Shown here piece by piece: positions 4,290 to 43,416 of a stretch of 64,000 nucleotides of DNA; positions within the stretch are counted from its first letter, which is position 1, and each line of letters starts with the position of its first letter. The notes beneath the pieces were generated by a model. That model was not told the origin of the DNA, made no database searches, and was given only the letters and a program-made list of their open reading frames with translations. Source of the DNA: an uncultured Chloroflexia bacterium (GTDB lineage Bacteria; Chloroflexota; Limnocylindria; Limnocylindrales; CSP1-4); the NCBI GenBank assembly GCA_963772565.1, contig CAVYXU010000033.1, positions 5,323 through 69,322 on the forward strand, in the 5' to 3' direction. Made by a program: the position numbers and the translations under genes.

Positions 4290-4993
4290 GCGTGCCCGGT
4301 TTGTGTTGGAGTCGAGTCGCGTCGAGGTGGGTCGCGGGTATCCGCTCTTTACTTGGCGGTGGATATCCGTCCAGGATTACCGACCTGAACTACGACGACT
4401 ACTGGCGCGGCTACGTCCATCAGGTCGTGGACCGGTTCCCGATCAGTGTGAGGCACCTCAGGCGAGGCGAGACGCGACTCGATATCGGCTGCGGGAAAGG
4501 GACGGGGGTCACCTACCTGGTGGCGAGCACCGGCGTGCTCGGTGTCGGGTTCGACATTTCTCCAGTGGCGGTCGAGACGGCCCGCTCCAAGGGCGTGGAC
4601 GCGAGAGTCGCCGCGGCGGTGGCCTCTGGCCCTGCGCTGGATTACCCGTTCAACACAGTCCTGACAGAGGAGGTCCTTGAGCACGTCGCGGAACTCGAGA
4701 GCGTCCTGGGTGGAATTCGCGACGACGTGGGCAAGCGGCTGATCCTCGCGTTTCCGAACATTGGCTACCTGCCGCATCGGCTGCGACTTCTGTTTGGGAG
4801 CTTTCCGGTTCCACGGGGTTGGCACCCCGGCGAGCACTCTCTTCTCTGGTATCTGTCCGATTTCGAGTGGTGGCTGAACCAACTTGGGTACCGGGTGGGT
4901 TCAGTTCAGGCCTCGAATGGCCTCCGAGGCCTCACTAGGGCTTGGCCAAGCCTGTTCGGAGATCAGCTCGTCTTGGCTCGACCCCGGCGGTGA
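4286..4993 (+). CDS. Class I SAM-dependent methyltransferase (MetW-like)
   Basis: LDIGCGKG, GFDIS, EVLEHV, FPNIGY. GTG start overlaps the wzy stop. Confidence 0.75.
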   Translation: MSVPGLCWSRVASRWVAGIRSLLGGGYPSRITDLNYDDYWRGYVHQVVDRFPISVRHLRRGETRLDIGCGKGTGVTYLVASTGVLGVGFDISPVAVETARSKGVDARVAAAVASGPALDYPFNTVLTEEVLEHVAELESVLGGIRDDVGKRLILAFPNIGYLPHRLRLLFGSFPVPRGWHPGEHSLLWYLSDFEWWLNQLGYRVGSVQASNGLRGLTRAWPSLFGDQLVLARPRR

Positions 4994-6111
4994 CCCCGCC
5001 CCGGATCGCGATCATTGGGCACGATGCGTGCTGCAACGCGCTGGGCCGCGCTCTCGTGCTCGCGGACCTGCTCGACCCACTGGGCAACGTTCATGTCGTC
5101 GCCTTCGGGGACTGCCTTTGGGCACCGGCCAAGGGGGGCCGGCCCGTCGAGCTCCTCGAACCGCCTGGGACCACCTCCGGCCTGCTCGGGGCCGCGGGCC
5201 GCCTCCGGTCGGCGATCCGGGGCGCCGACCTCATCGTTGCGGTCAAGCCGCGGATCCTTTCGTATGGGCTCGCGGCCATTGTCCGCGAGGGCCGTCCCCT
5301 CGTTCTTGACGTGGACGATCTCGAGCACCTCTTCACGCGCCGAAGACTTGGCTGGATGCGTCAGGTAATCGAGCCCGACCGCGAGCCGATCACGCGCCTG
5401 CTCGAACGCTGGCGTCGTCCCGTGTCTGCAGTGACGGTGGCGAGCCGAGCGCTCCAGCGGCGTAACGGCGGCACGTGGCTGCCGCATGTTCGCGACCGTT
5501 CCCTCCTCGCATCCCAGGCGCGCGAGGCTGGTCCCGCAACGCGTGCCCGACTCGGCCTCGACGCGATGTTCGTCGTAGGCTTCGTCGGCACCGTCAGGCC
5601 GCACAAGGGTCTGATCGCGCTGGCTGAGGCGGTGAGGCTACTCGGAAGTGATGCACGGCTCCTGATCGCGGGCAACGCGGGCGACGGACACGGCGTCGCA
5701 GATCTCGTGGCCCGATCCGGTGGCCGTGCCGTCATCATCGACGGCCCCATGATGAGTGAGCTTGGATCGATCCTCGGGGCGTGCGACGTGGTGGCGGTCC
5801 CCCAATCTCGAGCGCCGGAGGCGATCTACCAGTCGCCCGCGAAGTTGCTCGATGCGCTCGCAGCGGGCAGAGCGGTCGTTGCCGGTGACGTTGGCGATGC
5901 CGCCGAGCTGCTCGGGGGTGCCGGTCGCCTGGTCCCCTTCGGCGATCCGGCCGCACTCGCCGATACGCTAGTCGAATTGCGCGACGCGCCGATCGCCAGG
6001 GCGCAACTCGAGGCGGCGGCGCTGGCAAGAGCTAGCGCCGCATTCTCGCTGGATCAATGGCAGGCGACGATCGCGGGCGTCGTCGAACCATTCCTCGGTG
6101 CGTTGACCTGA
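4990..6111 (+). CDS. Glycosyltransferase family 4
   Basis: FVGTVRPHKG, SPAKLLDALAAG, GDVGD GT-B motifs. Confidence 0.85.
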   Translation: MTPPRIAIIGHDACCNALGRALVLADLLDPLGNVHVVAFGDCLWAPAKGGRPVELLEPPGTTSGLLGAAGRLRSAIRGADLIVAVKPRILSYGLAAIVREGRPLVLDVDDLEHLFTRRRLGWMRQVIEPDREPITRLLERWRRPVSAVTVASRALQRRNGGTWLPHVRDRSLLASQAREAGPATRARLGLDAMFVVGFVGTVRPHKGLIALAEAVRLLGSDARLLIAGNAGDGHGVADLVARSGGRAVIIDGPMMSELGSILGACDVVAVPQSRAPEAIYQSPAKLLDALAAGRAVVAGDVGDAAELLGGAGRLVPFGDPAALADTLVELRDAPIARAQLEAAALARASAAFSLDQWQATIAGVVEPFLGALT

Positions 6112-40653: not shown

Positions 40654-40880
40654 GACCGGAAGTTCCTCTGCACTCGGGCACCGAGAACCGGGCGTTGACC
40701 TGACAATAGGCGGGCCGGTGGGCTCCGGTGGAGTCGCTAGAGGTACCAGTGGGGCATCCCGGTGGTACCGGTGGGTAGGTCTGTGGCGTGGGCGCACCGC
40801 CCGGAACCGGTGATCGCGAGGGTGTGGGCTCGATCGGGCGGTCGCCGCGGCATGTGCGACAGGGCGACTACCATGACGGC

Positions 40881-41984
40881 ATGGAGCCCGTTCACGATCC
40901 CCTCGACCCAACGGCCGGCACCCCGCTCGCGCCGGCCACCGCGCCCCTGGCGTTCGACGGACGCCCAGGCATCCCGGACCGTCGAGGTCGCGCGCTGCGC
41001 GACCTCCGGATCTCGGTGACCGATCGCTGCAACTTCCGGTGCCCGTACTGCATGCCGGCCGAGGTGTTCGGCCGCGACTTCGCGTTCCTGCCGCGGGCGG
41101 AGGTGCTGTCGTTCGAGGAGATCGCGCGTCTGGCCGCCATCTTCGTCGGGCTCGGCGTCGGCAAGCTCCGGATCACCGGCGGAGAGCCCCTGGTCCGGCG
41201 CGACCTGCCGGTGCTGATCGGGCACCTGTCCGGGTTGCGGGCGGAAGGCGGCATTCCGGTCGACCTCACGTTGACCACGAACGGCTCCGCATTGCGGGCC
41301 CTGGCCGATCCGCTCGCCGAGGCCGGACTTCGGCGCGTCACCGTGAGCCTCGACTCGCTCGACGACAGGGTGTTCGGCGCGATGAACGGCGTCGACTTTC
41401 CCGTGTCGCGGGTGCTCGAGGGCATCGCCGCGGCCCGGACCGCCGGCCTCGCGCCGATCAAGGTCAACACGGTCGTCCGGCGCGGCATGAACGAAGCCTC
41501 GATCATGCCCCTCGTCCGGTGGGCGCGCGAGGAAGGGCTGGTCCTGCGGTTCATCGAGTACATGGATGTGGGGCACTCCAACGGCTGGCGGCTGGACGAC
41601 GTCGTGCCGGCGGACGAGATCCTGGCCACGATCGACGCGGAGCTGCCGCTCGAGCCGGTCCCCGCGAGCTACCGCGGCGAGGTGGCCGGGCGTTATCGGT
41701 TCCGCGACGGGTCGGGCGAGGTCGGCGTGATCGCGTCCGTGAGCGCGCCGTTCTGCGGCGACTGCACGCGAGCCCGCCTGTCCGCCGAAGGGCACCTGTA
41801 CACGTGCCTGTTCGCGGTTCATGGAACGGATCTCAAGACGCCGTTGCGAGACGGCGAGTCCGACGCCGACGTCGAGGCGCGGATCCGGGCCGTCTGGGGC
41901 GCCCGAACCGATCGGTACTCGGAGCTTCGAAGCGCTGCCACGGAATCGCTCCCGAAGGTGGAGATGTTCGCCCTGGGCGGCTAG
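40881..41984 (+). CDS. moaA: GTP 3',8-cyclase
   Basis: LRISVTDRCNFRCPYC, TGGEPL, FCGDCTRARL...CLF, C-terminal GG. Confidence 0.97.
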   Translation: MEPVHDPLDPTAGTPLAPATAPLAFDGRPGIPDRRGRALRDLRISVTDRCNFRCPYCMPAEVFGRDFAFLPRAEVLSFEEIARLAAIFVGLGVGKLRITGGEPLVRRDLPVLIGHLSGLRAEGGIPVDLTLTTNGSALRALADPLAEAGLRRVTVSLDSLDDRVFGAMNGVDFPVSRVLEGIAAARTAGLAPIKVNTVVRRGMNEASIMPLVRWAREEGLVLRFIEYMDVGHSNGWRLDDVVPADEILATIDAELPLEPVPASYRGEVAGRYRFRDGSGEVGVIASVSAPFCGDCTRARLSAEGHLYTCLFAVHGTDLKTPLRDGESDADVEARIRAVWGARTDRYSELRSAATESLPKVEMFALGG

Positions 41985-42057
41985 CCGGCGTTCGGCCGGG
42001 ATCGCATCGCGCCGCCGCGGTGCCCGCGGCGGCGCCGCGACGCGCGAGGGTGCGCGC

Positions 42058-42166
42058 TCGTCCACAGGTCGTCCACAGGCCGGGGAAACTGGTGGATGAT
42101 CGGCCACCGGCCGGCCCGTGGTTCGTGGACAACCCGCTTGGACGCCGTCCGCCGCGCCCGTAATGT
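42058..42166 (+). promoter_or_regulatory. DnaA-box-like cluster plus sigma70-type promoter
   Basis: TCGTCCACA at 42058 and 42069; reverse-strand boxes at 42091-42099 and 42124-42132; TTGGAC(42138)-17 bp-TAATGT(42161). Confidence 0.6.
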
Positions 42167-42171
42167 GGGTC

Positions 42172-42420
42172 CTGCCCGAAGGGGCCGATGGAGGCCCGGA
42201 ACGGAGGCGATCGCCTCAAGCCCGTTCCACCCGGCCGGCTGAGATCACCTCAAGGCCACGCCGGCGTCTGGTCCGCGATCACATCAAGGATCGACGCTCT
42301 CCGGTCGCTTCGGGCGCTTCGTTGCCAGCGTCGGCAGCCCGCAAGGGCAGTCGCGGTGGGCGCCCGGAAGGACGTGACCGGCATCCCGGTGTCGGTACTC
42401 CCTCCGGGCGTCGAAGTTTC
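42172..42420 (+). ncRNA. Candidate novel structured ncRNA with three 34-nt-spaced GAUCRCMUCAAG hairpins
   Basis: Own promoter, about seven hairpins including a GCAA tetraloop, periodic 12-mer at 42209, 42243 and 42277. Confidence 0.6.
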
Positions 42421-42528
42421 CGGCACTCGAATCGGTCATCGCGTCGTGTGCGACCGTGCGGGGTGGGCGCCCGGCGGCGGGTGCCCGGGTCAGGCCCGCC
42501 CGGCGCTGCGCAGGCTATCCTGCCCCCC

Positions 42529-43416
42529 ATGAGTGACGCCATCCCCCGGGGATCAATCGACCGGTCCCGCCCGATCACGCCCGTGGAGCAGCCCGCCCGT
42601 CTGGCCGCGCTGGTCGAGGCCGTTCGGGGGCGCACGGACCTCATCCCACGCGCCGGCATCGTGCTCGGGTCCGGGCTCGGCGATCTCGCGGATGGCCTCG
42701 ACAACCCCGTTGCGATCCCGTTCGCGGAGCTGCCGGGCTGGCCCGTCGCGACGGCGCCCGGGCACGCCGGCCGGCTGCTGCTGGGAGGGCTCGGCGGAGT
42801 CCCCGTCGCGATGCTCCAGGGTCGTCTCCATATCTACGAGGGCAATGACCCCGGACTTGTCGTCCAGCCGGTGCTGCTGTTCCGTCAGCTTGGCGCCCAG
42901 CTCGTGGTGCTGACCAATGCCGCGGGCGGCGTGGACCCGACGTTCCGGCCCGGGACGCTGATGGTGATCTCGGACCACCTCAACCTGACCGGGCGCACGC
43001 CGTTGCTGGGACCCAATGCGGATGAGCTCGGGCCGCGGTTCACGGACCTGACCGACGTCTGGTCGCCGCGCCTTCGCCAGCGGCTCCGCGACGCGGGCGT
43101 TGCCGAGGGCGTGGAGCTCGCCGAGGGCGTCTATGCGGGCCTGCTCGGTCCCTCGTACGAGACACCGGCCGAGGTGCGGATGCTCCGCACCATGGGCGCC
43201 GACGCCGTCGGCATGTCCACGGTGCTCGAGGCGATCGCTGCACGCTGGGTCGGGCTCGAGGTCTGCGGGGTGTCCCTGGTGACGAACGCCGGCGCGGGGT
43301 ACAGCGGCCAGCCGCTGAGCCACGCCGAGGTGCTCGAGGCTGCCGAGCGTGCCGGCCCGGACCTGGCGCGAGTGATCCGACGGTTCCTCGGGAGCCTGCC
43401 GCCCCCGCCTGGCTGA
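42529..43416 (+). CDS. punA: Purine-nucleoside phosphorylase (trimeric type)
   Basis: VLGSGLG, GHAG, GRLHIYEG, TNAAGG, GPSYETPAE, VGMST. Confidence 0.95.
   Translation: MSDAIPRGSIDRSRPITPVEQPARLAALVEAVRGRTDLIPRAGIVLGSGLGDLADGLDNPVAIPFAELPGWPVATAPGHAGRLLLGGLGGVPVAMLQGRLHIYEGNDPGLVVQPVLLFRQLGAQLVVLTNAAGGVDPTFRPGTLMVISDHLNLTGRTPLLGPNADELGPRFTDLTDVWSPRLRQRLRDAGVAEGVELAEGVYAGLLGPSYETPAEVRMLRTMGADAVGMSTVLEAIAARWVGLEVCGVSLVTNAGAGYSGQPLSHAEVLEAAERAGPDLARVIRRFLGSLPPPPG

Follow-up and report, generated by a model that had tools for sequence, protein, structure and literature searches.

A conserved structured small RNA with exchangeable loops and a putative DnaA-box promoter between moaA and PNP in Limnocylindria

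The DNA analysed here, referred to as the window, is a stretch of 64,000 nucleotides from an uncultured bacterium of the class Limnocylindria (Chloroflexota; assembly GCA_963772565.1, contig CAVYXU010000033.1), in which the 545-nt intergenic gap between moaA and the purine nucleoside phosphorylase gene (PNP) holds a structured RNA of ~245 nt. Combined evidence from comparative structure, RNA libraries and genome searches suggests that this is probably a stable, abundant and independently transcribed small RNA (sRNA) acting in trans, with its loops as the working modules and its promoter under DnaA-type control. The RNA family to which it belongs is previously undescribed and, judging from the genomes searched, confined to two families of the class. 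A first-pass annotation, made from the letters of the window alone, had proposed an unannotated structured RNA in this gap, and all the features it listed were found in place. The RNA comprises the following parts, given in window coordinates.

42172–42417, + strand: RNA gene, ~245 nt; 5′ end set 6–8 nt past the −10, 3′ end from A-tailed RNA contigs
42173–42186, + strand: closing stem, 5′ strand UGCCCGAAGGGGCC (helix 1)
42198–42228, + strand: hairpin 1, loop motif GAUCGCCUCAA at 42209–42219 (helix 3)
42232–42263, + strand: hairpin 2, loop motif GAUCACCUCAA at 42243–42253, 9 nt identical to the 16S rRNA tail (helices 5 and 6)
42270–42292, + strand: hairpin 3, 13-nt loop GCGAUCACAUCAA at 42275–42287, the commonest loop type of the family (helix 8)
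42303–42316, + strand: closing stem, 3′ strand GGUCGCUUCGGGCG, from the RNAalifold consensus
42316–42417, + strand: domain 2, with stem GCUUCG/CGAAGU, a GCAA-capped hairpin (42335–42350) and a long hairpin (42358–42412) (helices 10–14)
42376–42398, + strand: block GACCGGCAUCCCGGUGUCGGUAC in the long hairpin of domain 2, its 14-nt core GGCAUCCCGGUGUC invariant in 22 genus relatives

The fold consists of two domains, a 14-bp closing stem enclosing the three hairpins and a nearly invariant 3′ domain 2. Folding of 42172–42420 on the + strand gave −138.9 kcal/mol with z = −5.07 (none of 200 shuffles was as good), compared with z = −2.70 on the − strand. In a BLAST search of 41 relatives, 23 of the 24 congeneric genomes contained the block, with 73–95% identity, and the match always ended at query 318–342 (window 42417–42441, mostly ~42419), the sequence beyond being unalignable. 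Alignment of 22 genus members (A1) yielded an RNAalifold consensus of 75 pairs, in which 96.8% of cells are standard pairs. Eighteen of these pairs have changed on both sides, compared with 10.7 ± 1.6 in column shuffles (0 of 500 reached 18) and 2–7 when the partners were slid by 1–3 columns, so that the compensatory changes among related moaA–PNP intervals, by which the first-pass annotation had suggested judging the RNA, exceed both the shuffled and the slid controls. They fall in the closing stem (helix 1; 10 pairs, three compensatory, 95.5% of cells paired), in hairpin 1 (helix 3; six pairs, two compensatory, GC to CG in three sequences and GC to AU/UA in nine), in hairpin 3 (helix 8; four pairs, two compensatory) and in helices 10, 11, 12 and 14 of domain 2. 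The + strand is taken as the RNA strand because many G-U pairs would be C-A on the other strand, and the fold z-scores likewise favour it. For 38 one-hairpin relatives (alignment A2) the closing stem is the only helix found by RNAalifold, because MAFFT could not align the variable inner stems; counted by register, the first two loop-closing pairs are paired in 75% and 88%, respectively, compared with 20–75% and 11–66% when slid.

The three motif copies recur at an exact 34-nt period, as had been described (GATCGCCTCAAG at 42209, GATCACCTCAAG at 42243 and GATCACATCAAG at 42277), and the 64-kb window contains the 12-mer pattern GATCRCVTCAAG three times, where 0.05 occurrences would be expected and none of 100 shuffles reached three. 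Tandem Repeats Finder reported no 34-nt array, which it missed because the spacers differ, and listed only periods of 12, 11 and 9 nt, that of 11 nt being a pair of DnaA-box-like sites described below. Most of the stems proposed earlier are present in the consensus of the 22 relatives, namely GGAACGG/CCGTTCC (42198–42204/42222–42228), GGTCC/GGATC (42270–42274/42288–42292) and the GCAA hairpin (42335–42350). Around copy 2, for which ccggc/gccgg had been suggested, the consensus pairs CGGC.GGC with GCC...G.CCG (42232–42263). The stem GGGCGCCCGG/CCGGGCGTC (42358–42367/42404–42412), proposed as a possible terminator, also belongs to the consensus. The helix gacgct/agcgtc (42293–98/42327–32) had to be given up because it is incompatible with the covarying closing stem, which it would cross, and because its 3′ half shows no conservation.

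No Rfam family accounts for the RNA, which the first-pass annotation had not recognised as RNase P, signal recognition particle (SRP) RNA, tmRNA or a riboswitch. The whole window gave no match at gathering scores (Rfam 15), and an E-value scan of 41950–42600 returned only a chance-level HTT-AS1_3 (E = 4.8; 13.8 bits against a cut-off of 70). A scan of nine related loci, short paralogs included, matched only a neighbouring tRNA and no riboswitch, and SRP, RNase P and tmRNA are located elsewhere in the five genomes studied in detail (G000, the genome of the window, together with G006, G180, G067 and G061; four of the five closed). Two coding alternatives were rejected. A coding frame is at odds with 62 of 63 pairwise indel runs not being multiples of three, and in the case of an N-terminal extension of PNP, by way of a 432-codon open frame (42118–43416) in phase with the gene, the extension (42118–42528) contains no Pfam family. 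Open + strand frames, seen in 16 of 22 relatives, are attributable to the 71% G+C content.

Evidence for the RNA itself comes from assembled contigs of four of the 20 metatranscriptome runs listed, namely X1 and X2 from soil, X3, and X10 from rice paddy. Contigs from all four lie on 42170–42428, soil and paddy contigs cover 42182–42417, and a single 241-nt contig from X3 covers 42183–42416 with nine differences. Contigs from X1 and X2 reach 42416/42417 and then continue as 24–26 A, which fits the 3′ end of a + strand RNA at this position, the same place where conservation stops. Summed word depth amounts to ~5,100–5,300 in libraries of 31 million letters and to 1,853 in X10, but such figures add up the signal of relatives and say little about expression level. 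Beyond 42170–42428 only low-depth X10 contigs were found (41837–41910 and 42651–42687), and the uncovered parts carry no weight as evidence.

An RNA lying so constantly in front of a gene could also be its cis-acting 5′ leader, attenuator- or riboswitch-like, in which case the metatranscriptome RNA would be a terminated or processed leader of PNP. The flanking genes and the start region of PNP, which lies outside the RNA, are arranged as follows.

40788–41984: moaA (Pfam Mob_synth_C and Radical_SAM)
42516–42531, + strand: −10-like TATCCT (42516–42521), 7 nt and the PNP start codon ATG (42529), an arrangement of leaderless type
42529–43416: PNP, purine nucleoside phosphorylase (Pfam PNP_UDP_1)

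The order moaA–RNA–PNP is kept in nearly all of 50 loci compared; however, moaA is also kept upstream, so that general synteny could explain the order, and gene order alone does not show co-transcription. Downstream contexts in other genera speak for a leader. When 154 downstream contexts were sorted by sequence patterns (75 being left unclassified), at least 25, from other genera, showed a conserved hairpin, GCGGGCCUC...GAGGCCCGC, which stands directly past domain 2 and buries GGAGG before the PNP ATG. In three of these loci (L047, L056 and L058; ~75 nt between RNA and PNP) its 28-nt loop is also conserved, and the hairpin belongs to no Rfam family. Furthermore, another RNA that shares the promoter and the 5′ start (L030, L024) ends ~35 nt before a putatively NUDIX-like open reading frame (ORF). 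In some other genera the element may also act as a PNP leader. At least 54 of the 154 contexts, in the genus of the window and in others, carry instead a TAnnnT box 5–9 nt before the PNP start codon. The RNA–PNP spacer in the genus of the window is 30–400 nt long and unconserved apart from the −10-like/ATG arrangement of PNP, and TA(T/G)(C/G)CT-N6-8-ATG recurs in genus relatives, which agrees with the earlier proposal that PNP has its own −10. The A-tails after 42416/42417 likewise place the end of the RNA before PNP in this genus, and two relatives (L054, L059) have a canonical hairpin and T-run after domain 2. Not all members precede a gene on the same strand, as the short RNAs described below appear to face convergent genes or a tRNA, and none of the nine loci scanned matched an Rfam riboswitch. 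An independent sRNA is therefore favoured for the window, because of the A-tailed 3′ end and the separate promoter-like arrangement of PNP, and we regard a leader role as unlikely.

Two covariance models were used to follow the family, R1 for the full RNA and R2 for the one-hairpin module. R1 matches 47488–47746 of contig C33, corresponding to 42166–42424 of the window, and was found in 112 of 151 genomes of the taxonomic family of the window and in 41 of its 49 genera (the tally includes the unpublished G121). Elsewhere in the class only weak matches were obtained (four of 50 genomes in family f4, one of six in f2 and none of 49 in f3). A degenerate pattern made from the domain-2 block retrieved at least 120 genome records. 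Among the 80 pattern rows listed, 76 are metagenome-assembled genomes (MAGs) labelled Chloroflexota, Chloroflexi, Chloroflexia, Anaerolineaceae or Candidatus Limnocylindria/Limnocylindrales and four bear other labels, and R1 matched all 100 records searched among the pattern matches listed. Differences in hairpin number divide the matches into length classes of ~195, 260–295 and 350 nt. Counted in 146 distinct RNAs, the loop is present once in 91, twice in eight, three times in 41, four times in three and five times in two (one RNA was uncounted), with a modal spacing of 34 nt (50 of 107 spacings; range 21–72). Multivalency, which the three copies of the window had suggested, is thus not a trait of the family.

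The logo of 252 loop units reads G, A/C, G, A, U, C (232)/U (20), A (167)/G (85), C, A (171)/C (81), U, C, A, A, a 13-nt loop closed by C-G-type pairs. Copies 1 and 2 of three-hairpin RNAs are mostly of the CCUC type and copy 3 mostly of the CAUC type. Two of the three variable positions vary only by transitions (C/U and A/G), under which pairing with a fixed G or U would be preserved.

Besides the RNA in the window, G000 contains two further loci with the same promoter and 5′ start, on contigs C84 and C57, and at each of the three the 5′ GCCCGAAGGGGC pairs with a 3′ (G)GUUCCUUCGGGC.

G000:C84:4690–4766 (L222:1501–1577), − strand: 77-nt paralog with the same DnaA-box promoter and closing stem and one hairpin of the same loop type
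G000:C57 ~4668–4761 (L188:1419–1512), − strand: paralog with a different loop, AGGUGCUUGCAUCAG (AGGUGCUUGCAYCAG), on the same scaffold

Common to all members are four DnaA-box-like sites at fixed promoter positions and the closing stem GCCCGAAGGGGC/CCUUCGGGC. The loop of the C84 paralog is GAUGACAUCAA in G000 and GAUCACCUCAA in relatives (L027–L029, L182), and the different loop of the C57 type is present in one copy in G000 and in two in the relative G006 (L189:1548–1673). These findings suggest that one scaffold carries exchangeable loops. R2 was found in 93 of 151 class genomes (a tally that includes the unpublished G273, G248 and G254), comprising 41 of 44 in family f1, all 50 in f4 (one to four per genome, mostly two or three), one of 49 in f3, none of six in f2 and none of one in f5, and gave no match in genomes drawn from other Chloroflexota families. 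The short paralogs measure ~65–80 nt and number two to four copies per genome. Several of them face apparent convergent gene ends (read by eye, not gene-called) and one precedes an Rfam-confirmed tRNA, and for this reason the short copies are regarded as stand-alone sRNA genes rather than leaders. As to their surroundings in G000, the C84 paralog lies ~120 nt upstream of a 309-aa ORF without Pfam family, which has its own TATGAT-N7-GTG, and a chromate-transporter gene lies downstream of the C57 paralog.

The promoter TTGGAC-17-TAATGT, reported by the first-pass annotation, is present in front of the RNA and conserved across the family. It is preceded by four DnaA-box-like sites.

42058–42066, + strand: site 1, TCGTCCACA, first of a direct pair with an 11-nt period
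42069–42077, + strand: site 2, TCGTCCACA, second of the direct pair
42092–42099, − strand: site 3, inverted (GTGGATGA on the + strand)
42125–42133, − strand: site 4, inverted (GTGGACAAC on the + strand), 5 nt upstream of the −35
42138–42166, + strand: promoter with −35 TTGGAC (42138–42143), 17-nt spacer and −10 TAATGT (42161–42166)

The consensus of 141 distinct family promoters is TTGAC/TAnCGT, with T−11 at 0.88, A−10 at 0.98 and T−6 at 0.97. Forward RTCCAC boxes stand at −113/−112 and −102/−101 in these promoters, exactly two in 106 of them, and inverted GTGGAY boxes peak at −81/−80 (119/141) and −48/−47 (114/141), the last inverted box being followed by 5 nt and then TTGAC. A composite pattern, box-N5-TTG...TAnnnT, occurs four times in G000 as opposed to zero for the reversed pattern, and three of the four precede the RNA scaffold. 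The same box cores, GTGGACAAC among them, cluster in the dnaA–dnaN spacer beside an AT-rich stretch in the closed relatives G006 and G180, and because of this the sites are read as putative DnaA boxes. In these spacers (L195:5300–5650 in G006 and L196:5420–5660 in G180) five to eight GTGGAY/RTCCAC boxes are followed by the AT-rich stretch, a likely oriC. The fourth composite of G000 (L242:207–1050, i.e. C64:36606 onward) drives a gene with a BTAD (bacterial transcriptional activator) domain, the leader of which has a strong AAGGAGGUG site. Elsewhere in the same genome (G000:C30:2177–2262), three CGTGGAC boxes are clustered ~100 nt before a promoter-like site, TTGACC-17-TATCGT, which has a long leader, and the gene behind it is, judging from its start, presumably a class II ribonucleotide reductase.

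The fixed boxes could alternatively mean that the DNA itself is the conserved object, its clustered DnaA boxes and phased GATC sites serving to titrate or reactivate DnaA in the manner of datA or DARS, transcription being incidental. Four boxes at fixed positions with the same core as in the dnaA–dnaN spacer, together with three GATC sites at a 34-bp period, are in line with such an element, as is the reported preference of DnaA for pairs of closely spaced sites (PMC11317965). However, the compensatory changes, and G-U pairs that only one strand allows, show that it is RNA pairing that is under selection, and the RNA libraries contain the RNA with a defined 3′ end. The conserved loop positions reach well past GATC, most relatives have a single GATC-bearing loop, and the constant 5 nt between the last box and the −35 that follows it would be expected if the box served to regulate this very promoter. 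We consider a pure DNA element highly improbable.

Copy 2 had been noted for its likeness to the 3′ tail of 16S rRNA, and this likeness holds within the lineage. The 16S 3′ end of four closed relatives reads GCGGCTGGATCACCTCC and continues TTTCT, the lineage 16S rRNA ending GCGGCUGGAUCACCUCCUUUCU, and copy 2 reads CGGCUG-A-GAUCACCUC. On this basis the first-pass annotation had put forward a decoy that mimics the tail and titrates a tail-binding protein (Era, RbfA, bS1 or bS21). What the RNA shares with the tail (helix 45 plus GAUCACCUCC) is a helix strand, then 1–3 nt and then GAUCAC(C)UC, the full 9-nt identity with GAUCACCUC being seen in 44 of 252 loops, and the difference is the family consensus, GAUCACAUCAA, in which the second A varies. 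Indeed, this A is G in 85 of the 252 loops, so that GAUCA, present in 167, is not a conserved core, and CCUC is confined to multi-hairpin RNAs, none of the 91 with a single hairpin having it. Most of the RNAs are, moreover, monovalent.

Era itself was searched for as well. All Era candidates (TIGR00436) were scored in the five genomes named above, and only the GTPase halves of other GTPases matched; across the class, none of 151 genomes gave a match at E ≤ 1e-30, with 10 of 10 bacterial controls positive and 15 of the ~25–40 candidates per genome scored. A family scan showed two of the Era-like matches to be Obg and IF-2; the tandem and 450-aa matches are read by us as Der and MnmE. Matches to KH_2 comprise one of 61–68 bits, presumably ribosomal protein uS3 (not scanned), one KhpA-like and several weak ones, and none of them coincides with the Era-like GTPase matches. 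Abundance in RNA libraries and a KhpA-type KH protein encoded in G000 speak for a decoy, and so does the Era KH domain, which according to a review recognises GAUCA, both adenines especially, and the base of helix 45 (PMC10582724). The same review states that most phyla of the candidate phyla radiation (CPR), placed near Chloroflexota, have lost era (PMC10582724). Given the loop statistics and the searches for Era, the decoy reading is weak and we hold it to be improbable; among multi-hairpin members the likeness to the 16S tail is derived, and the class to which they belong yielded no Era in the genomes searched. Hfq was found in none of 151 class genomes, and CsrA (PF02599) in six of 151 and in none of five genomes of the genus of the window, G000 included, so that the usual sRNA partners are not on hand.

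A trans-acting sRNA, its loops being either seeds or protein sites, fits the observations better than the rivals because the scaffold is constant, the loops are the most conserved single-stranded parts and their copy number varies between genera, and also because a scaffold can carry different loop types, loops diverge within one RNA and some positions change by transitions only. In the mechanism we propose, the scaffold of promoter and closing stem would remain constant and the loops would serve as exchangeable modules acting in trans, most likely as single-stranded seeds pairing with other RNAs; the CCUC loop variants in the genus of the window could pair with Shine-Dalgarno-like GAGG(U)GAUC. 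Alternatively, the loops may be binding sites for an RNA-binding protein. Occupancy of the boxes by DnaA would set transcription and thereby link the RNA with the state of replication and perhaps, given the neighbouring PNP, with nucleotide salvage.

Several results weigh against the proposal of a DnaA-controlled, trans-acting sRNA. No target or protein partner was identified. Pairing of the loop with the rRNA operon of G006 reached −13.9 kcal/mol, compared with a mean of −13.5 and a best of −16.7 for shuffled loops, full loop complements are rare in G000 (five other 11-mer sites, both strands), and 9-mer loop complements before start codons are unenriched (9/93 versus 9/140 and 12/136 in controls). 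The simple consensus scan of 41900–42700 returned zero promoters and zero terminators, both falling below threshold, and the promoter call consequently relies on family conservation only. Putative DnaA binding is likewise drawn solely from the likeness to the boxes of the dnaA–dnaN spacer. As for the RNA libraries, the contigs indicate neither strand nor level, and the figures for X1 and X2 are almost identical, possibly reflecting one data set. The 5′ end at 42172 is deduced from the position of the −10. The hairpin that buries GGAGG before PNP in other genera also weighs against the proposal, as it looks like a leader.

In the library searched, no paper joins Limnocylindria with non-coding RNA, the loop words occurring only in unrelated papers, and a search on DnaA boxes and small RNAs (titles and abstract starts) gave no comparable case. 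Limnocylindria genomes used here are almost entirely MAGs, and for this class the present work provides an RNA family that is new and well supported, can be searched for with the covariance model and is seen at high depth in soil and paddy RNA libraries. It also offers a clear case of modular sRNA evolution, from one to five hairpins and with different loops on the same scaffold, and a possible connection, open to experiment, between the initiator of replication and the expression of an sRNA. More speculatively, Limnocylindria, in whose genomes the searches found neither Era nor Hfq, and CsrA in a few only, may use a set of DnaA-controlled modular sRNAs. The moaA–PNP member would have multiplied its 16S-tail-like loops and would pass on replication status post-transcriptionally, whether it blocks strong Shine-Dalgarno sites or sequesters a reader of the 16S tail, and chromosome replication would thereby be coupled to translation and nucleotide salvage. 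To this scenario we attach only a small likelihood.

Among known RNAs, 6S RNA is similar in size (~195–250 nt) and abundance, and the RNA could conceivably be the functional counterpart of 6S (or Ms1) in this lineage, an abundant binder of RNA polymerase. Rfam 6S (RF00013) was found in none of the five genomes (G000, G006, G180, G067 and G061), in which SRP, RNase P and tmRNA are accounted for, but the same search was positive in only five of 14 control genomes and its miss says little. The single-hairpin form of ~195 nt and the high depth in RNA libraries would suit such a role. Instead of a long rod with a central bubble, however, the 5′ end (42173–42186) pairs with the middle of the RNA (42303–42316), with three compensatory pairs, and a separate 3′ domain follows, and the 65–80-nt paralogs are too small for this function, making a 6S counterpart very hard to credit.

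The sRNA reading preferred here finds parallels in CsrB, RsmY and RsmZ, which are also abundant sRNAs with several hairpins, each showing one conserved loop, and with a copy number that varies between relatives. They differ in that the loop of the present family is GMGAUCRCMUCAA, without GGA (252-unit logo), and has no Rfam match, that CsrA was found in only the few class genomes given above and in none of the five of the genus, and that 91 of 146 RNAs have one hairpin. The 6C RNA of Actinobacteria, RsaE/RoxS and LhrC are loop-seed sRNAs of Hfq-poor Gram-positives, with stable hairpins, C-containing and G-poor seed loops, several loops per RNA and several paralogs, features shared by the present family, whose loops would be the seeds, in a class where Hfq was likewise not found in any of 151 genomes. 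In contrast to these, the sequence and structure are unrelated here, the members share a closing-stem scaffold, domain 2 is large and invariant, and the promoter carries DnaA-box-like sites. CcnA of Caulobacter is a further non-coding RNA tied to master cell-cycle regulators, but those are CtrA and GcrA, with whose mRNAs it pairs (PMC8959179), whereas the link to DnaA proposed for the present RNA comes from the boxes alone. The hairpin-repeat regulatory sRNA is thus a known kind of molecule, and the family, scaffold, loop and promoter described here are new.

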